Shown piece after piece: positions 2,931-38,162 of a stretch of DNA of 40,802 nt; the stretch's first letter is position 1, and every line of letters starts with the position of its first letter. The translations under genes were made by a program, and so were the position numbers. The notes under the pieces were generated by a model. The model saw only the letters and a list, made by a program, of their open reading frames with translations. It had not been told where the DNA came from and did not search any database. Source of the DNA: Candidatus Taylorbacteria bacterium RIFCSPHIGHO2_02_FULL_44_12 (GTDB lineage: Bacteria > Patescibacteriota > Minisyncoccia > Phycocordibacterales > PALSA-1337); contig MHRM01000012.1 of the NCBI GenBank assembly GCA_001822575.1, forward strand, positions 6,846-47,647, read 5' to 3'.

Positions 2931-4622
2931 ATGGCAGAAAATAATCCCTTGTCGATAATCATCGACAACGATTTAAATATTGTAGTCAACAACCCTTGGG
3001 TGGAGAAACTTGTTGCTGAAATCCGCCAGACCGGTAACGGCCAAGCAACGGTATGGCCTTCACAGGAAGTAAAGATGCCAATGGGGACTGATAACAAGGT
3101 CAGCCTTGACAACCTAAAGAGAAATATCTCTCCTGTTCCTCCCGGCTCGTACAGGGCAATAATCAAGGCCATCTACGCAATGGATGCCGGAGGAGAAACC
3201 GAAGAGAAGGTTATTGCATTCAAATTGACCAAAGAGCAGATAGACTGGCTATCGGCTCCGGCGATCAAGCCTCCAAAACCGACTATGCAACATCCACCAG
3301 AACCCACTTCTGAAGCGTCCGGGCAAGAAGAAGCCCAGCAGATGCTGAAAGAAGTTGAGGAAAGGGCAAGTGCCCGACTTGAGGAGGAGCGAAGAAGAGA
3401 AGCGGCTGCAAAACCGCCCACTCCACTTCCAGCAGCAAAAGTGCAACCGAAAAAGGAGACAGTTCGCATCTACTTGCCTTCGGCTCCAGCTGAGCCTGCC
3501 CCCGGAGCTCCAGTTGAAGAAAAGCCGGCACCATCGAAGGTGGCACCCGCTCAACCACAGGAAGACTTGCGAATCGGACTTCAAGCTGAGCGGATCAAAA
3601 AACAGGAAGCTGAAAAAGCTCAGCTTGCCAAACAACTTGAGGAGGAAAAGCGCGCTGCTCAAACGATCGTTGAGGAGGAGAAGAAAAAAACTGCCGAGGC
3701 TCAGAGGCTAGCTGCGGAATTAACTCTTCGATTGACGGCCGCTCAAGCATCGGTGACCGCAGCTCAAGCTGCTGCACCTCCAAGCGAGATGGTGAACTTC
3801 CAAAAAAAACTGGATGCCCTCGCCGCCAAAACCGCATCGCTGTCTCAACTTCCGCCCAACCCCCCACCACCCATTGAGGAAAAATCGTCTGACAAAAAAA
3901 CAGACAAACTTCGGGAGATTGCAAAAAAAGGCCTCCCTTGGTGGTTCATTGTCGGACTGGTGGCGCTCCTCTCTTTGATAGGAGGAACCATCTTCAAGAA
4001 AATGGTGTGGGAAAAGAGAGTAACCGACACACTCCCTCATTCCGGCGGTGCCTTGCAATCATTGCAAGAGGAAAACAAGGCGCTCAAAGAGTTGTTGGCA
4101 AGTAAATCCGTTTCTCCCGCCGCCATCCCAACGCCGACTAATGTCGCAGATGTCGGTGGCGCATCGCCCACCCCAACCAGTCCGGTTGGTAGTGGTGGAC
4201 AGTCTGTGGTGGTCAGTGGAAGCGGCAATGCTTTCCACGCTCCCCTCATCCTGAATGGAGCACACATTCCTCTGGTACCCGTGAGTTGGTTGTGCGTCAG
4301 CACAACAAATTCATTCTCGGTGCCGTCGGGATTGAACCTCCGCACTGGAACCGTGGTCTATTCTTGGGAGGAAGAACTCCTTCCGGGCCAGATCATGGAT
4401 CGACTCATAGATGGTCCCGAGTGGGAACTGTCTTATGAAGTCCGAGGTTTCAAATACCCTGTCATTGACACGGCCATATGCCTCAACAGCAAATGGGTTG
4501 AAACCTCCCAGTGGTCGTCATCGGATCGATCTGGGATCCCCACCACCGGCCAGCGTTTCAGAATTATTCCTGGAATGCAGTCTGTGACTATCACCTTCAC
4601 AGTGAGGAAAATCCGCCGCTAG
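2931..4622 (+). CDS. Large single-pass membrane protein with a Pro/Glu/Lys/Ala-rich coiled-coil region and a beta-rich C-terminal domain (hypothetical)
   Basis: The ORF is open from a TTG at 2883, and the first ATG is at 2931 (MAENNPLSIII...). It has a TolA-like charged helical stretch (EEERRREAAAKPP..., KKQEAEKAQLAKQLEEEKRAAQTIVEEEKKK). There is one TM helix (LPWWFIVGLVALLSLIGGTIF), then a PT-rich linker and a ~150-aa C-terminal domain. The start codon is uncertain. Confidence 0.6.
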   Translation: MAENNPLSIIIDNDLNIVVNNPWVEKLVAEIRQTGNGQATVWPSQEVKMPMGTDNKVSLDNLKRNISPVPPGSYRAIIKAIYAMDAGGETEEKVIAFKLTKEQIDWLSAPAIKPPKPTMQHPPEPTSEASGQEEAQQMLKEVEERASARLEEERRREAAAKPPTPLPAAKVQPKKETVRIYLPSAPAEPAPGAPVEEKPAPSKVAPAQPQEDLRIGLQAERIKKQEAEKAQLAKQLEEEKRAAQTIVEEEKKKTAEAQRLAAELTLRLTAAQASVTAAQAAAPPSEMVNFQKKLDALAAKTASLSQLPPNPPPPIEEKSSDKKTDKLREIAKKGLPWWFIVGLVALLSLIGGTIFKKMVWEKRVTDTLPHSGGALQSLQEENKALKELLASKSVSPAAIPTPTNVADVGGASPTPTSPVGSGGQSVVVSGSGNAFHAPLILNGAHIPLVPVSWLCVSTTNSFSVPSGLNLRTGTVVYSWEEELLPGQIMDRLIDGPEWELSYEVRGFKYPVIDTAICLNSKWVETSQWSSSDRSGIPTTGQRFRIIPGMQSVTITFTVRKIRR

Positions 4623-4973: not shown

Positions 4974-5939
4974 ATGAATAGAGACGCAACGGAGTCACCC
5001 AGACTAAAGCCGTTTGGAAACCCAGTAAGCATTACAATCATCTGGGTAATAATCGTCTTGGGAGGAGTTGGTATTCTGCTGGCTCTGCTAGGAAAATTCT
5101 TGGGGATCATAGTATTCGTCATAGGAATGCTGATCCTGAAGTTCGGACTAACGAAATTCTCGCCAGATAAACCACGGATCGCCGGACTTCTGACCAGAAA
5201 TGGCGTTCCAATAAAAGGAAGAGATGGTAATGGTTATGTGGTTGGTGGAATTACCATTCTCATGGATTATTTCCCTTTTTACATAGGAGCCATTCCCATA
5301 GACATAACGAATCAGGATAAGGACTTCCCTGTGAAGATTACATGCAAGGGCACAGATCAAGATGGCAATGGAACAGTACAATTAGAAGGGATTGTTTCGG
5401 TTTCATGGAGACCAGATCTCGCCGACCTTCAGGACTATGTTGATTCCGGATCATCTCCAGAGAAAATCTGGGCACAACTGGACGACATAGTCGAAAACAG
5501 AGTCAGAAGCGAGTGTAAGGATAAATCTTGGTTATATCTTGTCCAAGAAGGGGGTGAGGCAGTCGGTGATTTTGTCAGGAGAAGCATTCTTGATCATTCC
5601 TCATTCGGGATAGATCTATTCAAAATACAGATTGTCTTGAACGCTCCCAGTGATTTAGTCAAAGGAGCGTTGAATCGGGAAATAGAGTTACAACAACGCC
5701 AGTCCGATCTATTGGACTATGCGACAATGCGTTTAGCGGCTAAAGAGCTTTGGGACGCATTTGAACTTGATCCAAAGACAAGGGGGAAATACGGACTGGA
5801 TGACTGTCTTCAGATGATTCAGAGACAACACCAGATCCAAGAAGGACGGTCTGTCTTGATAGATAGCGCTGGCGTATCCGGAGCCATCAACATAGCCAAC
5901 TTCACCGCGCAGCTAAATCAAAAAGGGGGCGGGTCATGA
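4974..5939 (+). CDS. Membrane-anchored SPFH (band 7 / prohibitin-like) domain protein
   Basis: There are two N-terminal TM helices. An SPFH-like core follows (FPFYIGAIPIDITNQDKDFPVKI..., GIVSVSWRPDLADLQDYV, FGIDLFKIQIVLNAPSDLVKGALNREIELQQRQ). An in-frame GTG at 4959 is an alternative start. Confidence 0.55.
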   Translation: MNRDATESPRLKPFGNPVSITIIWVIIVLGGVGILLALLGKFLGIIVFVIGMLILKFGLTKFSPDKPRIAGLLTRNGVPIKGRDGNGYVVGGITILMDYFPFYIGAIPIDITNQDKDFPVKITCKGTDQDGNGTVQLEGIVSVSWRPDLADLQDYVDSGSSPEKIWAQLDDIVENRVRSECKDKSWLYLVQEGGEAVGDFVRRSILDHSSFGIDLFKIQIVLNAPSDLVKGALNREIELQQRQSDLLDYATMRLAAKELWDAFELDPKTRGKYGLDDCLQMIQRQHQIQEGRSVLIDSAGVSGAINIANFTAQLNQKGGGS

Positions 5940-6388
5940 CAAAAATCAAATTGGGTGGATGGGTTATGTTGGTGTTGGTGTTTGGAATCCTATCTGTCTG
6001 GGTCCTCGGCCTCTGGCTAAAAGACCCATCAAAGCCGATGTTCGCGGAGACAGGCACAAGCCCCCGCCAGACACGAACATCTGCCAATTACACAAGCAAG
6101 AACTGGCTCCGCATCACCAACATTATGGTTGTCAGTGGTCAATGGTCGCAGGAAATCACCGTTGACAAAAGCCGAGGAGACGAAAGATTGGACTCCAGGC
6201 TCCTTACACCTGGCGTGTGGTGGCAGATCAAGGTGAATGGAGTGGAATATCCACCCATGCCTCCATTAAATTCCCCTGAAGCCAAGGCTGTGGAGTTGCC
6301 GGAGGTCAACTCCATGCAATGGCGAGTGATCCCCAATTCCTCGGTCTCTCTGGGGACAATTGAGTATTGGGTCACAAAAAGGTATTGA
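5936..6388 (+). CDS. Small membrane-anchored protein, translationally coupled to the SPFH gene (hypothetical)
   Basis: 150 aa. The ATG overlaps the upstream TGA (ATGA at 5936-5939). It has one N-terminal TM helix (GWVMLVLVFGILSVWVLGLWL) and a beta-rich C-terminal part. Confidence 0.6.
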   Translation: MTKIKLGGWVMLVLVFGILSVWVLGLWLKDPSKPMFAETGTSPRQTRTSANYTSKNWLRITNIMVVSGQWSQEITVDKSRGDERLDSRLLTPGVWWQIKVNGVEYPPMPPLNSPEAKAVELPEVNSMQWRVIPNSSVSLGTIEYWVTKRY

Positions 6389-6500: not shown

Positions 6501-6588
6501 CAAAAAATCCCCCGTAGTCGAATCCCCCTTTGAAAAAGGGGTGGATTGATGCCGAGCGAAGCGAGGTATCAAGAGGGGGGATTTTTGG
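6501..6588. repeat. Nested palindromic element at a convergent gene junction (likely bidirectional terminator)
   Basis: The outer stem pairs AAAAATCCCCC (6503-6513) with GGGGGATTTTT (6576-6586). The inner hairpin is AATCCCCCTTT-GAAA-AAGGGGTGGATT. A/T runs lie on both sides. Confidence 0.65.
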
Positions 6589-6596
6589 CAAGGGAT

Positions 6597-6881
6597 TCAA
6601 ATCCCCTTGAGTGTATTTGACACCAGATAAATAATGCCCCAGGCCGAGATCATGATGAACATCCCGATGATCCCTCCCAACATATGATTGCGGCCCTGTT
6701 CGCGAGCCGCTGGGTCTCCCCCTTTCCAGATCATTTCAAAAATCCCATAAGCAAAAACAACCACTCCGACTGCGAACATAAGTCCGACGATCGGAGTAAT
6801 TATATTTGATACTATAGGCTGTATAGCCTGCCCGAACGATTCAGGTCCTGATGCGGCGTTTGCTATAGAGGCTAGAGTCAT
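6597..6881 (-). CDS. T4SS pilin-like (TrbC/VirB2-type) small membrane protein, paralogue 1
   Basis: 94 aa with two TM helices separated by a short charged loop (KGGDPAAREQGRNHMLGGIIGMFI). It has the same architecture as the four genes upstream. Confidence 0.6.
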   Translation of the reverse strand: MTLASIANAASGPESFGQAIQPIVSNIITPIVGLMFAVGVVVFAYGIFEMIWKGGDPAAREQGRNHMLGGIIGMFIMISAWGIIYLVSNTLKGI

Positions 6882-10887: not shown

Positions 10888-11085
10888 GTTTTTCAATGTC
10901 TCGCCTTGCCTGTCCGCAAACAACGCCCAAAGCCGAATCATCTCCTTCGCAAACCCGATTTTTAAAAAAATAAAGATTATATCCTGTATACAACTCGCGT
11001 ATTGCTAAAGAATCAGGGTTTGTGAAGGAGATGATCGGCGGAGGGCGGAGGTTTGATAGCAGGCAAGGCGAGACATTACAAAAAT
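10888..11085. repeat. ~198-nt long imperfect palindrome (MITE-like) abutting the gyrA stop codon
   Basis: A perfect 18-bp inverted repeat pairs AATGTCTCGCCTTGCCTG (10895-10912) with CAGGCAAGGCGAGACATT (11060-11077). A second conserved arm block pairs GAATCATCTCCTTCGCAAACCCGATT (10935-10960) with AATCAGGGTTTGTGAAGGAGATGATC (11011-11036). Confidence 0.8.
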
Positions 11086-13868: not shown

Positions 13869-14501
13869 TCATTCTCTTTGGAGAACAATCACTTGGGAAT
13901 CTTTGCCTTCCAAATCCTTTTTCTTTAGGGTTAATTTTAACACAGGATCGGGATTTTCGCCGGCTTCTTTGAGGAAGATCTTCAGGGCGTCTTTGCCCAT
14001 CCCGTCGCCATAATGGATCGGAATAATGATCTTGGGATTTATAGTTATGGCCAGTTTGTAAGCGGCCGAAGGATCTAGTATCCCTTGTCCACCAATGGGA
14101 ATAAAAAGAATGTCCACATCGTCAATGGCTTCCTCGGCTTCTTTGGGCAAGTCGGGAGTAGATAGAGCTCCTAGGTGGCAAATACGCATGCCCTCCAAGG
14201 CCACCATGTATATTGTATTGATTCGCTCTTCGGCTTTGTATCTTGAAGTGGAAGAAAATCCAGTGATGAATACGCTCCGTATCTCATATTCCCCAGGTCC
14301 GGAAATGACAAACGGCTTTTTGTCGCCAAAAGAAACAGTGTCCACGCCATTCATGTCGGAATGATTGAGGCTGGAAAGGACGATGTCAGCTCCAAATTTT
14401 GAAGACTTCAAGCTTGAATCTTTGGATATGGGATCAAAGGCCAGAACAATCTCTCCGAACTGGATTTTGACAAATGATCCGCCAAGATAGGTGATGATCA
14501 T
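13869..14501 (-). CDS. MBL-fold metal-dependent hydrolase (UPF0173 / Lactamase_B_3-like)
   Basis: 210 aa with MIITYLGGSFVKIQ..., ADIVLSSLNHSDM and ICHLGAL...DILFIPIGG motifs, typical of this small MBL family. Confidence 0.65.
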   Translation of the reverse strand: MIITYLGGSFVKIQFGEIVLAFDPISKDSSLKSSKFGADIVLSSLNHSDMNGVDTVSFGDKKPFVISGPGEYEIRSVFITGFSSTSRYKAEERINTIYMVALEGMRICHLGALSTPDLPKEAEEAIDDVDILFIPIGGQGILDPSAAYKLAITINPKIIIPIHYGDGMGKDALKIFLKEAGENPDPVLKLTLKKKDLEGKDSQVIVLQRE

Positions 14502-14516: not shown

Positions 14517-14525
14517 TACCTTGTC

Positions 14526-14545
14526 ATTCCCGCGAAAGCGGGAAT
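14526..14545. repeat. Short hairpin repeat ATTCCCGC-GAAA-GCGGGAAT
   Basis: A perfect 8-bp stem with a GNRA-type loop lies in the divergent intergenic region. It generates the spurious peptide SFPRKRES in ORF 14491-14676. Confidence 0.7.
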
Positions 14546-14588
14546 CCAGGGTCCTACAACAGTTTTTTAAACTATACCACCTATCGCT

Positions 14589-14677
14589 GACCCGACCCCT
14601 CTCGGCGAGACCAGCTCTCCCTTCGTTTTGCTCCGCAAAAGTCGGGAGACTGGCTCTCGCCTGCGGAGGCGGCTGAC
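14589..14677. repeat. Structured palindromic element, intergenic copy (paralogue of the hisS-internal copy)
   Basis: CCCTCTCGGCGAGACCAGCTCTCCCTTCGTTTTGCTCCGCAAAAGTCGGGAGACTGGCTCTCGCCTGCGGAGGCGGCTGAC is roughly 85% identical by eye to 29572-29660. It forms a nested hairpin of about 17 bp outside and 6 bp inside. Confidence 0.85.
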
Positions 14678-14823: not shown

Positions 14824-16053
14824 ATGTTCAAAAAAATAAGAGAAACCCTGTCAAGTTCAAAGAAACAAAAAACTGAAGAAACCGATCCTGTGTCAACTGA
14901 ACTAAAAGCATATCTAGGAGAGGAAACTGAAAAGAAAAAGACTATTCACTCAAGCGAAAAAAAGACAGATGTCAAAGTTATCGCCGAAAAGACTGGCGCT
15001 ATGGCTCCTTTTCTGAATATCATGAAGGATCCGCCGCAGATCGGAGATCTGGTGGAGGGTCCGGTGATTGCCGTAGAGAAGTCCTCGGTTTTTATTGACC
15101 TGCCGCCATTTGGGACCGGTATCATTTATGGCCGTGAATTTATCGTTGCCCGTGATGTCATCAAAAAGATCAATATTGGCGACATGGTGGCCGCAAAGAT
15201 CGTAGACAATGCCCACAAAGAAGGTTATTACGAATTGTCTCTGAAAGAGGCCCGCCAGGCTCTGATCTGGAGCGAAGCCGAAACAGCTATCAAGGAAAAG
15301 AAAACTCTTGACCTCTTGGTCAAAGAAGCCAATAAGGGTGGCTTACTCGTAGAATGGCAAGGGATCGTCGGTTTCCTACCAGCCTCACAACTCAAGGCCG
15401 AACATTATCCGCGGGTAACTGACGGAGACAAAGACAAGATCCTGGAAGAGCTCAAAAAACTTGTCGGCACCCGTCTATCCGTATCCATCATCGCCGCTGA
15501 TCCCAAAGAAGGCAAACTAATATTCTCGGAAAAGGGCTCCGAGCACAAAGAAAAAGAAAAGATCGTCAGCAAATACGAAATAGGCGACGAAGTGGAAGGG
15601 GTTGTGACCGGAGTGGTTGATTTTGGAGTCTTTGTCAAACTAGAAGAGGGACTGGAGGGCCTAGTCCATATATCCGAAATAGATTGGGGTCTGGTGGACG
15701 ATCCACGCAATTTTCTCAAAGTTGGCCAAAATATCCGAGCCAAAATCATAGAGATCAAAGACGGCAAGATCTCTCTATCTCTCAAACAGCTCAAAGCCAA
15801 CCCCTGGGTGGAAGCCGCCAAAAAATACAAAAAAGACAGCCTTGTTACGGGTGTAATCATCAAATTTAACAAACACGGAGCTCTGGCTTCGGTAGAGGAA
15901 GGAGTAGCGGGATTGGTTCATATTTCAGAATTTGGTTCCGAAGAAAAACTCCGATCGGCCCTTGAATTGGGCAAAACCTACCCATTCAAGATCACTCTCT
16001 TTGATCCCAAAGACCAAAAGATGGCGTTGTCATATGGTGCAGAGAAGAAGTAA
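14824..16053 (+). CDS. rpsA: 30S ribosomal protein S1 (four S1 domains, Lys/Glu-rich N-terminal extension)
   Basis: 409 aa with repeated S1 motifs (GDLVEGPV..., GYYELSLK, GDEVEGVVTGVVDFGVFVKL, GLVHISE twice). A GGAG lies 14 nt upstream of the ATG. Confidence 0.85.
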   Translation: MFKKIRETLSSSKKQKTEETDPVSTELKAYLGEETEKKKTIHSSEKKTDVKVIAEKTGAMAPFLNIMKDPPQIGDLVEGPVIAVEKSSVFIDLPPFGTGIIYGREFIVARDVIKKINIGDMVAAKIVDNAHKEGYYELSLKEARQALIWSEAETAIKEKKTLDLLVKEANKGGLLVEWQGIVGFLPASQLKAEHYPRVTDGDKDKILEELKKLVGTRLSVSIIAADPKEGKLIFSEKGSEHKEKEKIVSKYEIGDEVEGVVTGVVDFGVFVKLEEGLEGLVHISEIDWGLVDDPRNFLKVGQNIRAKIIEIKDGKISLSLKQLKANPWVEAAKKYKKDSLVTGVIIKFNKHGALASVEEGVAGLVHISEFGSEEKLRSALELGKTYPFKITLFDPKDQKMALSYGAEKK

Positions 16054-17388: not shown

Positions 17389-18625
17389 TCTCCGCAATAA
17401 AAAAGGAGATTCCCGATTTGTCTCCCGTGAGCATCTGGACAAGATTGGCGAAACTGCCGTTTATTACGGATTCATGCCCATAAAAAGCCCCGTGATATCC
17501 AAGACCGATCTGGAAATAGCCCGAGGTTTTGTTGAAGCAGATTATGTGGACGATCAAACAGAACTTCATAGCCATTTGCCCCTACATGTCGAAGAAAAGA
17601 TCGCTCTCATCCGGGCCTATAGCGAAAGAAATATGGACAGCTTGCCCCAACCGGTCATGCTCTACCTCAAAGATCCTGGCCGTGGTTCGACCAAGAAGAC
17701 CGAAGATCGCCGTTATGCCGATTTGGAAATCATAGGAGTATCTGGAAGTATAGCTGAAGCCTTGCTCATTCAGACTTCGCGAGCGATCTTGGCCGAAGAA
17801 GGATATCGTCATATCGCTGTGGAGATCAATTCATTGGGAGACAAGGACTCCATGGCCCGTTTTGCTAGGGAGCTCTCGGCTTACTATCGCAAAAACATCA
17901 ATACCATGTCCCCCGAATGCCGCCAACTCTTCAAGCGCGATCCTTTCAAGCTGTTGTCTTCCTCCGAAGAATCCTGCCTTGAGCTCAATAAGCTAGCTCC
18001 CAGGTCCATGGATTTCCTGCCGGAAGCCAGTCGCAGACATCTAGAAGAAGTCCTTGAATATTTGGAAACTCTAAAAATACCGTACATTATCAATAATAGT
18101 CTAATAGGCAATCGTTCTTATTGCTCCGAAACCATATTCACCATCGTCAATACCGACCCGGCTAATAAGAAGTCAAAAGATTCTCGGATTTTGGCTTTGG
18201 GAGTGAGTTGGAATAATTTGGGGAAACATGTCGGGATCAAACGAGATATTTCCGGGGTGGGATTATCCATACTTATAAAGGGACGTGTGACAGGACTACG
18301 CAAACCTATAGGCAAAGTCAAAAGACCGATTGCCGCTTTTGTTCAGCTAGGCATGGAATCAAAACTACTTTCTCTGAAGGTCATAGAGAGTCTACGCCAG
18401 GTCAAGATCCCTCTCCATTTTTCTCTGGCCAAAGACCGCCTAGGGGCCCAAGTTTCTTCAATGGACAAACTCCATACACCCTATGTCATAGTGATCGGCA
18501 AGAAAGAAGCGGTAGAGCGAACCGCCATAGTCCGCCGAACCGACACCTACTCCCAAGACATCGTCCCATTGGCCGACCTCCCCAACTACATGAAAAAGGC
18601 CGAGAAAAAGTATTTTGGGAAGTAG
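17366..18625 (+). CDS. Histidyl-tRNA synthetase-like paralogue with degenerate catalytic motifs and an intact HGTP-type anticodon-binding domain
   Basis: The bacterial HisRS topology is conserved (VEINSLGDKDSMARFARELSAYYRKN...RDPFKLLSS...LETLKIPYIINNSLIGNRSYCSETIF). Motif 2 (expected fRYErPQxGRxREF) reads MLYLKDPGRGSTKK, and motif 3 (expected GGRYD) reads LALGVSWNNL. The C-terminal 90 aa is anticodon-binding-domain-like. The start was taken at the ATG at 17366 (MTKIIHANL). Confidence 0.6.
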   Translation: MTKIIHANLRNKKGDSRFVSREHLDKIGETAVYYGFMPIKSPVISKTDLEIARGFVEADYVDDQTELHSHLPLHVEEKIALIRAYSERNMDSLPQPVMLYLKDPGRGSTKKTEDRRYADLEIIGVSGSIAEALLIQTSRAILAEEGYRHIAVEINSLGDKDSMARFARELSAYYRKNINTMSPECRQLFKRDPFKLLSSSEESCLELNKLAPRSMDFLPEASRRHLEEVLEYLETLKIPYIINNSLIGNRSYCSETIFTIVNTDPANKKSKDSRILALGVSWNNLGKHVGIKRDISGVGLSILIKGRVTGLRKPIGKVKRPIAAFVQLGMESKLLSLKVIESLRQVKIPLHFSLAKDRLGAQVSSMDKLHTPYVIVIGKKEAVERTAIVRRTDTYSQDIVPLADLPNYMKKAEKKYFGK

Positions 18626-18682
18626 GGCTTGCCATTCGACGGGGCGACCTTGCGGAGAGGAAAAAGAATGTTTGCCAGGATC
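18623..18682. repeat. Half-copy of the GGGYTTRCCATTC...TTGCG...AATGTTYGCC repeat family
   Basis: TAGGGCTTGCCATTCGACGGGGCGACCTTGCGGAGAGGAAAAAGAATGTTTGCCAGGATC aligns with 27556-27615 and 36121-36186. Its first three bases are the stop codon of the upstream gene. Confidence 0.75.
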
Positions 18683-24221: not shown

Positions 24222-24397
24222 GCAAACTTTAATAGTATTTTGTGAGCCGAGTACTTGTTTGAGCGTCGTGGACGATTGTTAGGTATGCGAAGGCTTTTGA
24301 TATGGACAAGATAATATCTTGTTACTCCAAGCCGAGCAGACCTTACAATACGTCAGACGCGAGTCACGCAGGCTCACAAAATACTATTAAAGTTTGC
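24222..24397. repeat. 176-nt element bounded by perfect 27-bp inverted repeats (MITE-like / long hairpin) at a convergent junction
   Basis: GCAAACTTTAATAGTATTTTGTGAGCC (24222-24248) pairs with GGCTCACAAAATACTATTAAAGTTTGC (24371-24397). The interior is also partly self-complementary (ACGATTGTTAGGT / ACCTTACAATACGT, and a central ACAAGATA-A-TATCTTGT). Confidence 0.85.
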
Positions 24398-27467: not shown

Positions 27468-27615
27468 GCCCGACGAACATGTGCCCTGCGCTGCCTCGCA
27501 ATGCGTTTGAGCCCCCGAGAATGACCCCTATTTTGGTCGCTCCCGCGAGCCAAAATAGGGTTTGCCATTCGACGGGGCGACCTTGCGAGGCAGCGCGGGG
27601 CACATGTTCGTCTGG
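27468..27615. repeat. 148-nt palindromic element made of two inverted half-units, in the pilB-pilC intergenic region
   Basis: The 30-bp outer stem pairs GACGAACATGTGCCCTGCGCTGCCTCGCAA (27472-27501) with TTGCGAGGCAGCGCGGGGCACATGTTCGTC (27583-27612), with one G-T pair. The central hairpin is CCCTATTTTGG-TCGC-TCCC-GCGA-G-CCAAAATAGGG (27526-27560). Single half-units occur at 18623-18682 and 36121-36186. Confidence 0.85.
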
Positions 27616-28910: not shown

Positions 28911-30314
28911 ATGAAAAAAAGTGTCCTATCAACCGAGCCATACAAGGGCGTCCGTGATTTTTTCCCCGCGGATATGGCCGCGGAAAGAAAGATTTTTGAT
29001 ATTTGGAGAAAAACTGTGGAAAAGTACGGCTATGAAGAGTACGGAGCCTCCGTCCTGGAGCCAGCCGAACTATACAGAGCCAAAAGCGGTGAAGAGCTTG
29101 TCAATGAGCAGACATACACTTTCACCGACCGAGGCGACCGCCAAGTCACTCTCCGCCCAGAGATGACTCCGACTGTGGCTAGAATGGTATCAGCCAAGCG
29201 ACGCGAGCTGTCTTTCCCTCTTCGCTGGTACTCTATACCCAACTTATTCCGATATGAACAACCCCAGCGTGGCCGTCTGCGTGAGCACTGGCAGCTCAAT
29301 GTGGATATTTTTGGCGTTGAATCCATAAATGCCGAGATAGAAATCATCAGTATCGCCCATGATATCGTTTGTGCTTATGGCCTCAAAGAGAACGATTTTG
29401 AGATCAGAATCAACAATAGGAAGCTGATGAATTACCTATTCAAAGAAGTTTTTGGCTTGAATGAGGAGGCTACCAAGAAGATGTCTAGACTGATAGATAA
29501 GAAAAATAAAATCTCAAAAGAGGATTTTGAGAAAGGTGTCAGAGAAGTTTTTGACAATCTCACAATTACATCACCGCGCCCTCTCGGCGAGAGCAGCTCT
29601 CCCTTCGTTTCGCAAGCGAAAGTGGGGAGACTGCTCCCGCCTGTGGGTGCGGCTAACGGGAAACTTTCTGATAAATTACTTTCCCTATTAAACTCCCAAA
29701 CCCTTGAAGAATTATCTTCTCAACTGCCAAAAAATGTGGGAGAAAATGAAGGAATAAAAGAGATCCAAAATGTAATTCAAAACCTAGAGAAACTCGGCAT
29801 AACCAATGTCCGTTTTGACCAGTCCTTGATGCGTGGCTTTGATTATTATACCGGGATTGTCTTTGAGATATTTGACCAGAACCCCGTCAATAAGCGTTCT
29901 GTTTTTGGCGGAGGTCGATATGACGATCTCCTGTCAATTTTTGGCGGAGATAAAATTCCAGCTGTGGGATTCGGAGCTGGCGATGTGGCGGCCCGAGATC
30001 TTATGGAGACTTATGGCAATATTTCAGAGACTGATTCATCGGCTGATTTGTATATTTGCACAATTGGAAAACAAAATATTTCCTATGCCTTGAAACTGGC
30101 CCAAAAGCTGCGCCAAAATGAGACCCGAGTTACGGTTGATTTTTCCGAAAAGAAAGTCGGCGACCAGATAGCTTCGGCTGTTAAATATGGTATTCCCAAA
30201 GTCATCTGCATTGGAGACGAAGAAGTGAAAACCACCAAGTTCAAAATTAAAACCCTTGAAACAGGCCAGGAAGTCACTGTCCAGGAAGAAGAACTAATCA
30301 AGAGTCTATTGTAA
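28911..30314 (+). CDS. hisS: Histidine--tRNA ligase (catalytically canonical), carrying an in-frame repeat-derived insertion
   Basis: 467 aa. Motif 1 is LRPEMT, motif 2 is FRYEQPQRGRLREHWQLNVDIFG and motif 3 is GGGRYDDL. GFDYYTG and a C-terminal anticodon-binding domain are also present. Confidence 0.92.
   Translation: MKKSVLSTEPYKGVRDFFPADMAAERKIFDIWRKTVEKYGYEEYGASVLEPAELYRAKSGEELVNEQTYTFTDRGDRQVTLRPEMTPTVARMVSAKRRELSFPLRWYSIPNLFRYEQPQRGRLREHWQLNVDIFGVESINAEIEIISIAHDIVCAYGLKENDFEIRINNRKLMNYLFKEVFGLNEEATKKMSRLIDKKNKISKEDFEKGVREVFDNLTITSPRPLGESSSPFVSQAKVGRLLPPVGAANGKLSDKLLSLLNSQTLEELSSQLPKNVGENEGIKEIQNVIQNLEKLGITNVRFDQSLMRGFDYYTGIVFEIFDQNPVNKRSVFGGGRYDDLLSIFGGDKIPAVGFGAGDVAARDLMETYGNISETDSSADLYICTIGKQNISYALKLAQKLRQNETRVTVDFSEKKVGDQIASAVKYGIPKVICIGDEEVKTTKFKIKTLETGQEVTVQEEELIKSLL
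29572..29660. repeat. Structured palindromic element inside the hisS reading frame (translated as ...SPRPLGESSSPFVSQAKVGRLLPPVGAANG...)
   Basis: It is a nucleotide-level paralogue of intergenic 14589-14677. It folds into the same nested hairpin, with compensatory changes in the stems. Confidence 0.85.
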
Positions 30315-31793: not shown

Positions 31794-31919
31794 CCGCAAA
31801 AAACTCCTCACATTCTTGTGGAGACATTGCCAGAGGCCTCAAACCACAGAATCTAAACTTTAGACATAAATATTTGAATCAAGATGAGTCTCCACAAGAA
31901 TGTGAGGAGTTTTTTGCGG
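31794..31919. repeat. 126-nt element bounded by perfect 32-bp inverted repeats at a convergent junction
   Basis: CCGCAAAAAACTCCTCACATTCTTGTGGAGAC (31794-31825) pairs with GTCTCCACAAGAATGTGAGGAGTTTTTTGCGG (31888-31919), with a 62-nt spacer. Confidence 0.9.
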
Positions 31920-31928
31920 AGTAAAACC

Positions 31929-34799
31929 TTATTTATGATATCCCAACACCTTACCCAGCTTGCAATATTGACATTCTTTGTCATCGCAAAAGGAGTTCAG
32001 AAAGGACATCTTTAATATACTTTTGGCTGTGGAAATGATAAGTTTTTTCAGAGCTTCAACTTCATCATCGGAAATATCAAACCTTTCTTTCTTGTATATA
32101 CCACGATCATTCGGCTCAACAAAATCTATTTCGCCGTATTTCATCCGAAGTTTCTTTGATTCTCCCTCAAGAAGTAATTTGTAAAAAACCAATTGCCTTT
32201 TGTAATTACCATCCGCGTCCGCCGTTTTGCCTTCTATTTTATTCCTTGAATGTGGCTTGGCGGTTTTGTAATCCGTCACTATCACATTCTTGTCATCCAC
32301 AAACTCAACCTTGTCCAGCTTGCCCGATAATTCAAGTGTTCCCCCATTCTTGCCATCAATAGCGATACTGACTCCACGGACGCTGTATTCCGTCAATATT
32401 CGCCGGCCTTTTGAGAAATCACAACTAGAATAATATCCCTCCAAAGCCAATCTTCCTCTCTTGTACAAACTCTGAAAAATATCCATGGAAATAGGAGCTT
32501 TTTCCAACTCTTTTTTGAAAGCATTTATGAATAACTTTTTTGTCATTGTCTTGGCTTTTATATAACTATCAAATAGGGCCCGCAAGGCGGAATGAACAGC
32601 CGTACCATAGAGCTGATGAATGCTCTCGGCTTGGGGAATACGGACGAGATTAACAAAGAAATATCTCCACGGACATTGGAGAAAATTGTTTAGATGAGTG
32701 ACAGAGAACCCTTGGGACAGGAATGCTTTCCGGACGAAATCACTATTTACTATGGAAGATGACTTCCCTATTGGCATGCCCGCCAAAGCCCCGAAATAGT
32801 CCCGGGTTCCCCGTGCTGGCGGCCTTTCAAAAGAGACTGTTTCGGAAGGCATCTCTCCCACAAACTGGCTCGGCACCACGGCTTTACCATTCATGGACCG
32901 TGGATATGATACCGTCACTTCACGCCTAGCCCGAGTCATAGCCACAAAGAACAACCTTCTCTCATCTTCTATCCTGCCTGTGTCGCGAGCATGTTCAATA
33001 ATAGGTATAACAAACAGATTGCGTTTGGAGCGATTACCCCATGTTCCATCCACGGCATGAATAATGAAGACATGATCAAATTCCAAACCCTTGGCTCGGT
33101 GAGCAGTCATAAGACGAACACCACCGATGTGTTCGGATTGAGGATTCTTGATAGTCAATCCATGCTCGCGAGCCAGTCCAAGATAATGGACAAAATCAGC
33201 CAGATAAAAGCCCTTCATAGACCGAGCCATATTCATGACCATATCATGAAAGGCCTGTATAGTTGACAATCTTTCCAGAGAATCTTTGGCAGTGATGATA
33301 TCCGAGAGAATACCTGTCTCCCTCATCAAGATGTCAACAAATTCCACAAATGGTACAGTTCGGGCCTGATGAGACCATTGCTTGATCCGATCATAAGCTT
33401 TGCGGATCTTGGGATCGGCTGATTTGATCATAATATAAAGCGGCTTTTTTTGTCTGCTGGACATAGCACATAAAAGAGATACAGTCGCTGGTTCAAGATC
33501 ATTGAAATCCAAGAAGAGAGCCGCCGCCAATTTTTGATCGGATGAAGAGTCATTGATAGCTTCACAGAGGATTGTGATATACATCACATCCCTACTGGAC
33601 AAAAGATCCTTATCAGATTCCACCCGATGCGGTACGCCATAGGCGCCCAAGAAGGTGCTTATGCCCATAGCATGACTATTTTCCCTATACAAAACAGCTA
33701 TTTCTTCTGGTTTTTGTCCGCTTTCTATCAAATGCTTTATGGATTGGGCCACCAAGGCCAATTCATCTTCTTTGGTAGCCGTTTCCGTTACCCCCACAGC
33801 TCTTCCGCCTATCTGCAAAGATACAAGTTTTTCTTTATTTTGATCTGGAATGGAAGGGTTATTGCCGATAATACCGTGAGCCGCATCCAAAATTATTTGG
33901 CTTGAACGATAGTTATGACGAAGATTTATGATCTTGGCCTCTGGATACTTTTCCGAGAAATAAAGAAAGTTCCGGAGAGATGCTCCTTGAAAACGATATA
34001 TAGCCTGTTTATCATCTCCGACAATAAAAAGATTTGGTGAAGGGTGAAAATCCGCCAAAAGTTCCAATATTCTGTTCTGGGAAGCGTTGGCGTCTTGGTG
34101 CTCATCAGCCAAAATATATTGAAAATTTTCTTGAAGTCCTCTTTTGAGATCTATGTCATCTACCATGGCCCGGATCAATTCAAGAAGCATGTCGTCAAAA
34201 TCATATAATTTCCGTCTGGCCAATTCAGCTTCGTAAGCCCCATAAACAAAAGCCAATTCCAAATTTTTTAATTCTTGTTTTTGATCGCTTTTCCCAATAC
34301 TTTCCAATAACATTTTTGGAGATATATTCTCCCGCTTCAATATATGTATCTCCGACAACACTGGCCTGACATAATAAAAAGGAGCTCCGAAAGGACGGAG
34401 TAATTTTATCTCCTTGGAATAAAGGATCTTCTCAATAATATCAGCCTGCTCTGCTTCAGTTATGACCTTGGAACCGATAATTCGGGGAAAATTATCTGGG
34501 TATTGATTTATAATCATTTCGGCAAAACCGTGGAAAGTATGAATATTGACTCTATAAGCCGGTTGACCGATCAGGCTGATTAGCTTTCTCTTCATGGACT
34601 GGGCTCCAGACTCGGTAAAGGTAAGAGCCAAAATGCTGTCTGGAGTAGAATCGGTCAAACGCAATATATTTGCTATCCGTAATGACAAAACCGTGGTCTT
34701 GCCAGTACCAGGTCCAGCAATAACCATCACCGGTCCTTCTATGGCCTCCACGGCCCGACGCTGTTCATCATTCAGTCTCTGGTATATCTGATCTATCAT
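31929..34799 (-). CDS. UvrD/PcrA-family helicase fused to a C-terminal PD-(D/E)XK (Cas4/AddB-like) nuclease with a Cys cluster
   Basis: 956 aa. Helicase motifs are GPGTGKTT, ILADEHQDAN, VGDDKQAIYRFQGA, NYRSS, TAHRAKGLEFDHVFI and VAMTRARREV. The nuclease part has CPWRYF, GTAVHSAL, VIVTDYKT, QLVFYKLL and CDDKECQYC. Its ATG abuts the rpoD stop. Confidence 0.85.
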   Translation of the reverse strand: MIDQIYQRLNDEQRRAVEAIEGPVMVIAGPGTGKTTVLSLRIANILRLTDSTPDSILALTFTESGAQSMKRKLISLIGQPAYRVNIHTFHGFAEMIINQYPDNFPRIIGSKVITEAEQADIIEKILYSKEIKLLRPFGAPFYYVRPVLSEIHILKRENISPKMLLESIGKSDQKQELKNLELAFVYGAYEAELARRKLYDFDDMLLELIRAMVDDIDLKRGLQENFQYILADEHQDANASQNRILELLADFHPSPNLFIVGDDKQAIYRFQGASLRNFLYFSEKYPEAKIINLRHNYRSSQIILDAAHGIIGNNPSIPDQNKEKLVSLQIGGRAVGVTETATKEDELALVAQSIKHLIESGQKPEEIAVLYRENSHAMGISTFLGAYGVPHRVESDKDLLSSRDVMYITILCEAINDSSSDQKLAAALFLDFNDLEPATVSLLCAMSSRQKKPLYIMIKSADPKIRKAYDRIKQWSHQARTVPFVEFVDILMRETGILSDIITAKDSLERLSTIQAFHDMVMNMARSMKGFYLADFVHYLGLAREHGLTIKNPQSEHIGGVRLMTAHRAKGLEFDHVFIIHAVDGTWGNRSKRNLFVIPIIEHARDTGRIEDERRLFFVAMTRARREVTVSYPRSMNGKAVVPSQFVGEMPSETVSFERPPARGTRDYFGALAGMPIGKSSSIVNSDFVRKAFLSQGFSVTHLNNFLQCPWRYFFVNLVRIPQAESIHQLYGTAVHSALRALFDSYIKAKTMTKKLFINAFKKELEKAPISMDIFQSLYKRGRLALEGYYSSCDFSKGRRILTEYSVRGVSIAIDGKNGGTLELSGKLDKVEFVDDKNVIVTDYKTAKPHSRNKIEGKTADADGNYKRQLVFYKLLLEGESKKLRMKYGEIDFVEPNDRGIYKKERFDISDDEVEALKKLIISTAKSILKMSFLNSFCDDKECQYCKLGKVLGYHK

Positions 34800-36091: not shown

Positions 36092-36120
36092 ATTGTACGC
36101 TATTTTGTGATAATACGCAA
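36092..36120 (-). promoter_or_regulatory. rpoD promoter TTGCGT-17-TACAAT in the dnaG-rpoD spacer
   Basis: The minus strand reads TTGCGT-ATTATCACAAAATAGCG-TACAAT. The leader to the ATG is 32 nt. Confidence 0.5.
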
Positions 36121-36186
36121 TAGGGTTTACCATTCTCGGGGGCTCAAACTACATTGCGGGGAAGTAAAAGAATGTTCGCCGGGCTC
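36121..36186. repeat. Half-copy of the GGGYTTRCCATTC...TTGCG...AATGTTYGCC repeat family
   Basis: TAGGGTTTACCATTCTCGGGGGCTCAAACTACATTGCGGGGAAGTAAAAGAATGTTCGCCGGGCTC. Its reverse complement aligns closely with the left half of 27468-27615 (GAGCCCCCGAGAATG..., CGCAATG..., CGAACAT...). Confidence 0.8.
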
Positions 36187-36201: not shown

Positions 36202-38103
36202 TCATTGCATACCGGATGATGATGCCTTGGCTTTTCTGGCTGACAATTCCTGACATTTCCTAGCCAATTCCGCCACTTTGTGATGTTCTCCGGATTTTTC
36301 CGCCAAACGCAATTCTTTCATCGTATCCATCAGATCTTCATTGATGATATCTCTTTCAAAATTTGAAAGTATCTCTCTAAAATGTTTGTCCCACCCCGCT
36401 TGATCACTGCCAAAGTAGGCCTCGGCTTCAAAAGCCAAATCGGCCATAACCATATCGGCCTGTTTTGCCCGTCTTTGATAAGAATCACCGGCAATCTTCT
36501 TTAGATGATCGCGATATTCTTTGGCTTGAGGAAGGTTATCTTTGTCCATCAGATATAAGATTCCGAACAATTGCCGTTCGGCTCTATCAACATTTTTGAC
36601 TATTTCACTACTTGTCCGCGAAGACTTTGTAGATACGACAGTCTTTGGGTCCGCCGCCTTCAAGCGATTGGCAATGACTTTTAGATCATTCCAAATAACA
36701 TCTTCATTGGCTATTCCGGCTCTATCGCGGATCATCCCAACAAAATGTCCTTTGTCGGTTTCTTTTTCTATATTCACTAATAGCGGAAAGACTCGTTCTT
36801 GAAGGGCTTGAAGTGTCTTCCGTCTATCGGTTATTTCAGCCAAAACATTATCCAGTTCAAATTCCACCACATTCTTGGCTTGACGGAGCGATTGCCTCCA
36901 TAATTCAACATTTTCCTTGACCAAGTCGGCTGGATCTTTGCCGCCTATGATATCGGCAATCTTGACATCCATCCCTATGGACAAAGCGATACCTGCGGCT
37001 CGCAAGGCGGCCTTGCGGCCAGCCAGATCAGAATCAAAAGCAATGATAACATTGGGAGACAGTCTGCGAATAAGGCCTAGATTGTTTACAACCCCCTCTT
37101 TGCTCACTGATCCATCAGAAAGAGCGGTTCCAGAAGCGGCAACGGTATTGCGCACTCCGGCCTGATGTGACAAGACCAAGTCCATCTGCCCTTCTACCAA
37201 AATAGAATAATTCAACCGCCGAATCTCACTCTTAGCTTTGTCCAAACCATACAAAACAGAGGACTTGTCATATAGAGGAGTGTCTGGGCTATTAAGATAT
37301 TTGGCCGACTTGCCATCGTCCTTGACGATTCTACCAGAGAATCCAACTACCCTCCCGCCGGAATCCATGATTGGAAACATTACTCTACCGCGAAACCGAT
37401 CGTAATAGTGTTGTGAGGTTTTACTAGAATTATTGTCTGTAGGGACGGCGATGAAGCCGACCGTTTTGGCAAGCGCGAGCGTAGCGGAGCGTGAGCTGCG
37501 AGCGTTTGCCAAAACAGCGGCGGAAGAAGCCGTCCCTACAGAAGTATCCTCCCACACATCAGTTTCCTTGCGTTTGATCAAACCCACTTTATCTAGCAGT
37601 AGATCATTCCAATTCTTTCTCTTCAAATGATCACGGAGATTGCTCCAGCCTTCCGGCGCCCAACCCAATCTGAAAGTTTTTTGGCTTTCAGCGGAAATGC
37701 CTCTACTTTTGAGATATTCTTGAGCGAGTGGGGATTTGGAGTATTGATCTTCAAAGAATTGAGTGGCTGTTTCCATGATCTGAAACAATATATCGCGCTC
37801 TCCATCGGCTTTGCGGTCAACAGTCAGAGTTACGCCAGCTTTTTCCGCCAAGATCTTAAGAGCTCCCCGAAAATCCAATCCTTCAAACTGTTGAATAAAA
37901 GAAAATATATCGCCCTTTGCTCCGCAACCAAAACAATAGTACCCGCCACGATCCGGCGAGACGAAAAAAGATGGGCTCTTTTCATTGTGAAAAGGACATT
38001 TTGCCTTGTAAGATTTGCCAGCTTTTTCCAATTTGACATAGGTGCCTACCACTTCATCTATAGGCAAACGGCTCTTTATTTCTTCTACGGCGCTCCGATT
38101 CAT
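36202..38103 (-). CDS. dnaG: DNA primase, carrying an in-frame palindromic insertion
   Basis: 633 aa with the zinc ribbon CPFHNEKSPSFFVSPDRGGYYCFGCGAKGD, YDRFRGRVMFPI, and TOPRIM (ILVEGQMD, AFDSDLAG). Confidence 0.92.
   Translation of the reverse strand: MNRSAVEEIKSRLPIDEVVGTYVKLEKAGKSYKAKCPFHNEKSPSFFVSPDRGGYYCFGCGAKGDIFSFIQQFEGLDFRGALKILAEKAGVTLTVDRKADGERDILFQIMETATQFFEDQYSKSPLAQEYLKSRGISAESQKTFRLGWAPEGWSNLRDHLKRKNWNDLLLDKVGLIKRKETDVWEDTSVGTASSAAVLANARSSRSATLALAKTVGFIAVPTDNNSSKTSQHYYDRFRGRVMFPIMDSGGRVVGFSGRIVKDDGKSAKYLNSPDTPLYDKSSVLYGLDKAKSEIRRLNYSILVEGQMDLVLSHQAGVRNTVAASGTALSDGSVSKEGVVNNLGLIRRLSPNVIIAFDSDLAGRKAALRAAGIALSIGMDVKIADIIGGKDPADLVKENVELWRQSLRQAKNVVEFELDNVLAEITDRRKTLQALQERVFPLLVNIEKETDKGHFVGMIRDRAGIANEDVIWNDLKVIANRLKAADPKTVVSTKSSRTSSEIVKNVDRAERQLFGILYLMDKDNLPQAKEYRDHLKKIAGDSYQRRAKQADMVMADLAFEAEAYFGSDQAGWDKHFREILSNFERDIINEDLMDTMKELRLAEKSGEHHKVAELARKCQELSARKAKASSSGMQ
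37437..37541. repeat. 105-nt palindromic element inside the dnaG reading frame (exactly 35 codons: SVGTASSAAVLANARSSRSATLALAKTVGFIAVPT)
   Basis: The outer stem pairs CTGTAGGGACGGC (37437-37449) with GCCGTCCCTACAG (37529-37541). The inner stem pairs GTTTTGGCAA with TTGCCAAAAC. It lies just upstream, in protein terms, of the conserved YDRFRGRVMFPI block. Confidence 0.85.
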
Positions 38104-38119: not shown

Positions 38120-38150
38120 AAAAAACAAAACCCCGCCGAAGCGGAGTTTT
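38120..38150 (-). terminator. Rho-independent terminator downstream of rpoC
   Basis: The minus strand reads AAAACTCCGC-TTCG-GCGGGGTTTT-GTTTTTT. It has a TTCG tetraloop and a T-run. Confidence 0.8.
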
Positions 38151-38162
38151 GTGGAGTTTACT

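Follow-up and report, generated by a model that had tools for sequence, protein, structure and literature searches.

A palindromic element, probably a selfish repeat, in frame within the primase gene dnaG of a Candidatus Taylorbacteria genome

Introduction

How does a long hairpin-forming palindrome come to lie in frame within an essential replication gene, and what keeps it there? The question is raised by the DNA primase gene dnaG of Candidatus Taylorbacteria bacterium RIFCSPHIGHO2_02_FULL_44_12, which belongs to the Paceibacteria of the candidate phyla radiation (CPR, or Patescibacteria). We studied the gene in a window of 40,802 nucleotides (nt), the whole stretch of DNA that was analyzed (GenBank assembly GCA_001822575.1, contig MHRM01000012.1, positions 6,846 to 47,647). 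The best-known cases of palindromic repeats lying in frame in essential genes come from Rickettsia and a small number of free-living bacteria rich in repetitive extragenic palindromic (REP) sequences. On the evidence below, the palindrome in dnaG is probably a selfish element resembling the Rickettsia palindromic elements (RPEs) and the hairpin-forming REP doublets (REPINs), which inserted in the gene and is tolerated in a disordered surface turn of the primase. Elements of this sort are known, as the RPEs of Rickettsia and as intragenic REPs; the host group and the gene are new. The dnaG element is also not an isolated oddity, since the turn in which it lies is a lineage-wide hot spot of unrelated hairpin families.

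An in-frame hairpin in dnaG

The dnaG gene of the window is intact (36202–38103, minus strand, 633 amino acids) and lies in the gene order rpoB-rpoC-dnaG-rpoD. Its open reading frame (ORF) carries the Pfam domains Zn_ribbon_DnaG (a CHC2 zinc ribbon), DNAG_N, and Toprim, is a strong match to solved DnaG structures, and retains all DnaG domains and invariant residues. Its nearest homologues are found in Patescibacteria/Paceibacterota, at 61–63% identity or less. Within the gene, the palindromic element spans 107 nt (37436–37542) and can form an imperfect long hairpin on either strand; its G+C content is ~62%, compared to ~45% for the window. The codons that it adds to the dnaG frame (37438–37542, minus strand; 105 nt, 35 codons, no stop) encode DnaG residues 188–222 (SVGTASS...IAVPT), with the sequence SVGTASSAAVLANARSSRSATLALAKTVGFIAVPT. 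The initial annotation of this window had the length and the peptide right, but placed the interval at 37437–37541 with 13-bp arms, one base off the codon-phased interval. Since the element is open in three of its six frames, an in-frame, stop-free state is unremarkable by itself. Translation through the element would be marked by the peptides SATLALAK and TVGFIAVPTDNNSSK.

The element is built in two tiers. The outer arms, TCTGTAGGGACGGC on the left (37436–37449, plus strand) and GCCGTCCCTACAGA on the right (37529–37542, annotated on the minus strand; sequence as read on the plus strand), are complementary at 14 of 14 positions, the right arm being the exact reverse complement of the left. 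The left arm carries a GTAG tag (37439–37442) followed by a GGACGGC half-stem, and the right arm carries the corresponding CTAC (37536–37539). An inner hairpin (37463–37515) is formed by the 14-nt arms GTTTTGGCAAGCGC (37463–37476) and GCGTTTGCCAAAAC (37502–37515), which pair at 13 of 14 positions; the single mispair reads G-T on the plus strand and, in the dnaG sense, A-C. The 25-nt central loop (37477–37501, plus strand) is rich in (N)AGCG pentamers (GAGCG TAGCG GAGCG TGAGC) and contains GCGTAGC (GCG-N-AGC). On each side, a 13-nt segment separates the outer from the inner arm, and there is no pairing between the left and the right segment. On the left, GGACGGC together with 37450–37462 (GATGAA GCCGACC) could form a degenerate REP-type hairpin with six of seven pairs and a 6-nt loop, and on the right the reverse complement reads GGACGGC-TTCTTCC-GCCGCT, with approximately four to five of seven pairs. 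Because the right segment (37516–37528, AGCGGCGGAAGAA) is not complementary to the left one, the two REP-like units make up a heterodimer. In the predicted fold of the whole element, both of these segments form an internal loop.

Folding predictions bear out the initial claim of a long hairpin-forming element inside dnaG. Folded as RNA in the dnaG sense, the element reaches a minimum free energy of −64.6 kcal/mol (z = −6.95), and none of 200 shuffled sequences was equally stable; folded as DNA, it gives z = −7.6. For the linker region as a whole, z is −8.0 and the energy −72.5 kcal/mol, compared to a minimum of −53.4 among windows of the same length elsewhere in dnaG. The antisense (plus) strand folds more stably still (−80.7 vs. 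−72.5 for the sense strand), and all six AGCG motifs of the element sit on that strand. No target-site duplication was found at the element, whose flanks (...ATTATTG / AGTATCC...) share no direct repeat (TTG, AGT), and its termini occur only once in the window. Rfam gave no relevant match, either for the whole window at the gathering threshold or for 37300–37700 at E ≤ 1. An intein, an intron, and an intrinsic terminator were considered and ruled out, given the small size of the element, its in-frame read-through, and the absence of a T-run behind the stem. The idea of an older outer hairpin made by the flanks of the linker, as would point to a nested insertion, was also rejected (z = −1.0 for the flanks alone).

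Since chimeric reads can create palindromes, we considered whether the element might be an inverted junction made during assembly or amplification, or whether this dnaG might be a pseudogene with a functional copy elsewhere. The genome data available for comparison consist of the window and 7.3 kb past its end (locus L120), together 48 kb or ~5% of a roughly 1-Mb genome, and a second dnaG could lie in the remainder. The identical 633-amino-acid DnaG is, however, present on 18 contigs from several assemblies, and six loci that were compared (four from ENA and two from JGI assemblies) have 100% identical dnaG DNA. The same gene in independent assemblies excludes an assembly artefact, and the chimeric contig junction against which the initial annotation had cautioned is not what we find. 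In addition, the palindrome is imperfect and internally asymmetric. A pseudogene is at odds with the intact ORF, its full set of domains and invariant residues, and the conserved rpoC-dnaG-rpoD context. Artefact and pseudogene alike are effectively excluded, and we give them next to no weight. A strain variant, L121 (ENA ERZ27254845), differs from the window by four mismatches over 14.6 kb; in this variant rpoC is called as two ORFs of 832 and 400 amino acids, compared to a single one of 1235 amino acids.

Position of the insert in the primase

The insert splits the Pfam DNAG_N match at profile position 64/65, which places it within the RNA-polymerase domain, in the N-terminal subdomain. It therefore does not lie between the zinc-binding and RNA-polymerase domains, where the initial annotation had expected it. 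The same annotation was right that the insert lies upstream of the conserved YDRFRGR block, though not immediately so: it ends 12 residues (DNNSSKTSQHYY) ahead of DRFRGRVMFPI. Comparison with solved structures confirms that the protein is unusually long here, with 54 residues in the window DnaG vs. 7 in Pseudomonas (5vaz), and 67 vs. 16 in Aquifex (2au3).

An AlphaFold2 model of DnaG, built on 46 sequences, has a mean predicted local distance difference test (pLDDT) score of 82 and falls below 50 in two segments only, residues 182–228 and 488–503. The first of these (37420–37560, minus strand) comprises a low-complexity linker and the element, with pLDDT of 33–44 between flanks of ~90. The prediction is therefore that the added residues make a disordered loop on the surface, just upstream of the conserved YDRFRGRVMFPI strand, with confident flanks and a fold that the encoded peptide does not disrupt. 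On the reading favored here, the element has survived for three reasons: it is a multiple of three in length, it brings no stop into the dnaG frame, and it lies in a short surface turn. It would then be read through, adding 35 residues to the protein. The in-frame, stop-free state may itself be the mark of a survivorship filter imposed by an essential gene.

Termini and relation to REP doublets

An indication of where the element may come from lies in its termini. We scanned one genome per GTDB species for the pattern GTAGGGACGGC-N60-90-GCCGTCCCTAC, and obtained at least 119 loci, often many per genome, where chance would give ~2 matches (this expectation is our own estimate and was not computed by a tool). 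The loci listed belong to the Verrucomicrobiota (many of them Chthoniobacter), Acidobacteriota, Bacteroidales, Planctomycetota, Cloacimonadota, Desulfobacterales, Lentisphaeria, and others. They have a common architecture of GTAG, a hairpin (GGACGGCnnn-loop-nnnGCCGTCC), a variable spacer, an inverted unit, and CTAC, and are GTAG-tagged REP head-to-head dimers, or REPINs (PMC3733652, PMC3116915). The window element has the same GTAG and GGACGGC heads, with a spacing to the GCCGnCC partner equal to that in the listed REP doublets. Furthermore, the 10-nt motif GAGCGNAGCG of its central loop is found in seven of 124 listed REP doublets, against 0.16 expected.

One of these loci also provides a link to a transposase. 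In a Verrucomicrobia locus (L023), a gene at L023:3148-3867 matches NCBIfam NF047646, the REP-associated tyrosine transposase (RAYT), with 91.9 bits against a cut-off of 80, and has REP doublets of the GTAGGGACGGC type on both sides (3200–3305 and 3737–3846). The gene was located with an E. coli YafM sequence, and its family assignment rests on the NCBIfam result, not on that query. The called ORF spans both doublets, so that REP sequence is annotated as coding in this locus too.

Several results weigh against counting the window element among the REPINs. No locus from the Patescibacteria is among the matches listed in the terminus scan. The core of the element is not significantly similar to the 124 listed doublets (best local score 24, vs. 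a mean of 21 and a maximum of 30 for shuffled sequences), and the relationship to REP doublets consequently rests on the 11–13-nt termini and the 10-nt loop motif. Both REP-like sub-hairpins of the window element are degenerate. Within the 48 kb, neither a second copy of the exact dnaG element nor a RAYT or other transposase was found. A search of 1.84 billion cluster representatives with the element peptide gave DnaG itself and, apart from it, only two proteins of low complexity or tandem repeats; no other protein with the peptide was detected. A metagenome scan for GTAGGGACGGC-N8-20-GTTTTGGCAA gave one match, which says little, since the element's own locus was not returned either; the metagenome collection evidently lacks this organism. 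That one match lies inside an unrelated coding sequence with no palindrome and was set aside as chance. A protein search with the three open frames of the element, joined by X's, gave no scoring match, DnaG itself included, and says equally little.

Other hairpin repeats in the genome

The same genome carries other dispersed hairpin repeats, and several families of them were found by comparing the sequence of the window and L120 against itself. One, Family X, is a ~85-nt hairpin that occurs three times in the 48 kb. One is intergenic (14597–14677), in the spacer between the ORFs 13869..14501 and 14824..16053. Another lies in frame in hisS (29574–29657, within ORF 28911..30314, plus strand), where it encodes the peptide SPRPLGESSSPFVSQAKVGRLLPPVGAA and where HisS is ~35 residues longer than PDB 1wu7. 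The third, at L120:105-184, is in frame in an Aminotran_5 gene (aminotransferase/cysteine-desulfurase-like) and encodes DVRDLSTTADLPSFCSAKVGRLLSSADAGT. The family reaches beyond this genome, as the dnaG insert of two relatives from another lineage, P0002 and P0004, is also a Family X member (E = 3.5e-9). Across five members of the family, both partners have changed with pairing retained in 16 of 33 predicted pairs. The spacer with the intergenic copy also holds a small hairpin, GGATTCCCGCTTTCGCGGGAATGAC, at 14521–14553.

The initial annotation had suggested that the window contains another palindrome in an essential coding sequence, and that the core of the dnaG element resembles it. There is such a palindrome, though it is the Family X copy in hisS. 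The hairpin that had been named, at 6501–6588, is intergenic, with ORF 5936..6388 (plus strand) on one side and a pilin-like gene (6597..6881, minus strand) on the other. Its resemblance to the dnaG element is small and lies in the tip, GAGCGAAGCG, which holds the sole other occurrence of GAGCGNAGCG in the window. The motif occurs exactly twice there, at 6554 and 37477, both times at a hairpin tip, compared to 0.10 occurrences expected.

Family Y has two copies, at 24222–24397 and at L120:~2563-2735 in the trmD-rpoB spacer, with a 126-nt core of 89% identity. Their outer stems, of 27–30 bp, are unrelated between the copies, yet each is perfectly self-paired, which could reflect either a nesting in palindromes that were already there or a change of whole arms as units. 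This bears on the possibility that the dnaG palindrome arose in place, by inverted duplication or template switching in an expanded low-complexity linker followed by templated correction, with no mobile element involved. In its favor, the Family Y copies suggest that palindrome arms in this genome can change as units, the exact dnaG element is apparently single-copy, and the DnaG linker is of low complexity and variable in length in relatives even where no hairpin is present. A local origin does not sit easily with the exact match of both arms to a widespread REP head, at loci far in excess of the estimated chance number, nor with the presence of GAGCGNAGCG in one REPIN family and in another hairpin of the window. 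The G+C content of the element stands well above that of its surroundings, and the insert of P0002 and P0004 at the same site can be shown to belong to a dispersed family. For these reasons we consider a local origin improbable, and an inserted REPIN- or RPE-like element remains the reading that we favor.

Further hairpins were observed in the window. A near-perfect one of 147 nt (27469–27615; 33-nt arms, 63% G+C) lies in the spacer between T2SSE-like and T2SSF-like genes. One of its arms recurs at 18620–18654 (94% over 35 nt), and it has a weaker match (76% over 70 nt) at 36119–36185 in the rpoD-dnaG spacer. A long hairpin with perfect 32-nt arms (31794–31919) lies between convergent DsbA-like and UvrD/PD-(D/E)XK genes, and a two-tier hairpin of 195 nt (10889–11083) lies downstream of gyrA; neither of the two has a second copy in the 48 kb. 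An inverted repeat in the UvrD-like gene (32978–33176), with 16-nt arms at 88% and no further structure, was treated as chance. Elsewhere in the window, a gene of the 23S rRNA intervening-sequence protein family (PF05635; 1761–2147, 128 amino acids) lies between tRNA-Lys (1660–1733) and tRNA-Leu (2184–2266).

A hot spot in Paceibacteria DnaG

To place the insert among its relatives, 120 DnaG orthologues were aligned and a neighbor-joining tree was built. The turn between the motifs GLxKK and YDRFRGR is minimal, with 5–9 residues, in 46 of the 120, and has 12 residues in another 24. In 28 orthologues, at least 25 residues are present here beyond the conserved columns, and no other internal site of DnaG has as many extra residues in any of the 120. 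The turn is therefore the only large-indel hot spot of the protein in this lineage. With the exception of small clades, the long inserts are mutually unrelated as protein. The 35 residues of the window DnaG are thus not conserved across orthologues, the alternative that the initial annotation had raised, and the peptide search agrees. The inserts are distributed patchily on the tree, and close pairs of filled and empty sites are found (P0091/P0119, P0009/P0049, P0071/P0067, and the query/P0003). Further sister pairs of this kind are P0061/P0103 and P0055/P0118.

At the DNA level, inserts were compared from nine insert-bearing genes, of which seven were tested against shuffled sequences and two were folded only. 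All nine are strong hairpins. Each of the seven tested (z from −4.9 to −9.4) was more stable than all of 200 dinucleotide shuffles and than every window of the same length in its own gene, and the two that were folded only, from P0004 and P0009, reach −61.4 and −76.0 kcal/mol, respectively. The stems differ in sequence between clades and represent several unrelated families. Some of these connect to the window: motifs related to GAGCGNAGCG occur at the tips of relatives' dnaG inserts, and the inserts of P0058, P0083, and P0055 carry the small hairpin GGATTCCCGCTTTCGCGGGAATGAC, with 100% identity over 27 nt to window positions 14526–14547.

Hairpins at one turn in nine of nine lineages examined invite another explanation, namely that the host keeps the hairpin as a cis-acting structure of dnaG, and that their recurrence reflects selection for structure, not tolerance. 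As RNA, such a structure could act as an RNase III site or make ribosomes pause, so that less primase is produced relative to rpoB-rpoC and rpoD, which are highly expressed RNA polymerase genes flanking dnaG; at the DNA level, it might be a structure located at the gene. This idea is consistent with the inserts of P0002 and P0004, which are orthologous. They are less alike in DNA sequence (80% identity) than the regions outside them (89%), yet nine of 30 pairs have changed on both sides and none is broken, where slid controls gave 0. The sense strand is also the better folded one in seven of the nine inserts. On the other hand, compensatory change is equally found among paralogous copies of Family X, so that preservation of structure is a property of the repeats and not of dnaG. 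Copies of the same families lie in unrelated genes and spacers, and 46 of the 120 orthologues have only the minimal turn, among them near sisters of genes that carry inserts (P0119 vs. P0091, P0049 vs. P0009, P0067 vs. P0071). In the window element it is the antisense strand that folds better and carries every AGCG motif, which shows that orientation is not fixed. A scan for promoters and terminators gave no signal at the element, and a separate terminator-like hairpin is already present between rpoC and dnaG. Taken together, we doubt that the hairpin serves as a cis-acting element. The hairpin between rpoC and dnaG (38125–38152, minus strand) has a T-run, lies in a 59-nt spacer, and could attenuate read-through into dnaG.

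A broader reading is that the turn before YDRFRGR is a Paceibacteria-wide landing site, where palindromic repeats of several families have been captured repeatedly and are kept as hairpins, perhaps beyond passive tolerance. Possibly the elements target this place in the primase, or the host sets primase dosage within rpoBC-dnaG-rpoD through the hairpin. We regard this as a rather unlikely extension, though one of some consequence: if it were true, CPR bacteria would have an RPE-like system of their own, with arms co-evolving to preserve structure.

Discussion

Taken as a REPIN- or RPE-like insertion, the locus suggests the following course of events. A non-autonomous repeat, made of two GTAG-tagged REP-like units placed head-to-head around a structured spacer, would have landed in the dnaG coding sequence of a Paceibacteria genome. 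It may have been mobilized as single-stranded hairpin DNA by a transposase acting in trans, either of the HUH/Y1 (RAYT) type or another, and would then be a member of a multicopy, RAYT-mobilized family in this genome. Insertions that broke the reading frame of an essential gene would have been lost. The hairpin would since have persisted through the structure dependence of its repeat family, or through templated repair of imperfect palindromes, rather than through any need of dnaG for it.

The occurrence of this phenomenon in the CPR is of interest with respect to genome economy, as these bacteria have extremely reduced genomes. One turn of the replicative primase has absorbed hairpins of several families in many lineages, which leaves filled and empty alleles as a naturally occurring series. 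It could be used to study how selfish hairpins enter coding sequences, how the arms of palindromes co-evolve, and to what extent insertions are tolerated in a core replication enzyme. There are also practical consequences for annotation and phylogenomics of the CPR, because such inserts inflate protein lengths and introduce unalignable segments into markers such as dnaG and hisS. In the literature searched, we found no description of in-frame palindromic repeats in CPR/Patescibacteria or in dnaG.

Bacterial MITEs (miniature inverted-repeat transposable elements), such as Correia/NEMIS and ERIC/RU, are small non-autonomous inverted-repeat elements that can be in frame in ORFs and form hairpins (Delihas 2007, PMC2759123). 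The dnaG element is likewise a small inverted-repeat hairpin in frame inside an ORF. Classical MITEs, however, have termini derived from an insertion sequence and a target-site duplication, whereas the dnaG element has no flanking duplication and no known parent insertion sequence.

The likeness to REPINs, which are mobilized by RAYTs (Bertels & Rainey 2011, PMC3116915), goes further. GTAG stands at the outer end of each arm with a G+C-rich stem adjoining it, two inverted units surround a structured spacer of ~50 nt, the whole folds as a single hairpin of ~100 nt, and there is no target duplication. The head of the element, GTAGGGACGGC, is also the head of the doublets that flank the RAYT gene of L023. 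GTAG-tagged REP head-to-head dimers have been described by Di Nocera et al. 2013 (PMC3733652), including intragenic ones of Opitutus terrae and other species; the intragenic dimers encode 20–30 residues, and many of them lie in replication or repair genes. The dnaG element similarly encodes extra residues in a replication gene, although dnaG is not among the REP-tagged genes listed in that study. The differences from REPINs are the single copy and the lack of a RAYT in the 48 kb, the degenerate sub-hairpins, and the host, a small-genome CPR bacterium from a group that appears neither in the REP surveys consulted nor among the matches listed in our scan.

The setting of the element also has a parallel in Rickettsia. 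The families RPE-1 to RPE-8, attributed to Ogata et al. in 2000 and 2002, are reportedly palindromic repeats of ~100–150 nt that lie in frame in essential genes. They are said to be translated as extra surface peptides and to comprise several families per genome, both intergenic and intragenic. As in Rickettsia, the repeat described here is palindromic, in frame, and stop-free in a conserved gene of a reduced genome, is absent from orthologues, and shares its genome with several repeat families whose copies are both intergenic and intragenic. The Rickettsia RPEs are also mentioned by Di Nocera et al. (PMC3733652), and together with the intragenic REP dimers they provide a precedent for the dnaG element. 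For an RPE in Rickettsia guanylate kinase, the protein has reportedly been compared with and without the insert. The host lineage and the sequences differ, and given the unrelated host, membership in one of the RPE families is not expected. What sets the Paceibacteria apart from the RPE case is that a single turn of one protein has been entered repeatedly, by different families, across a bacterial class.

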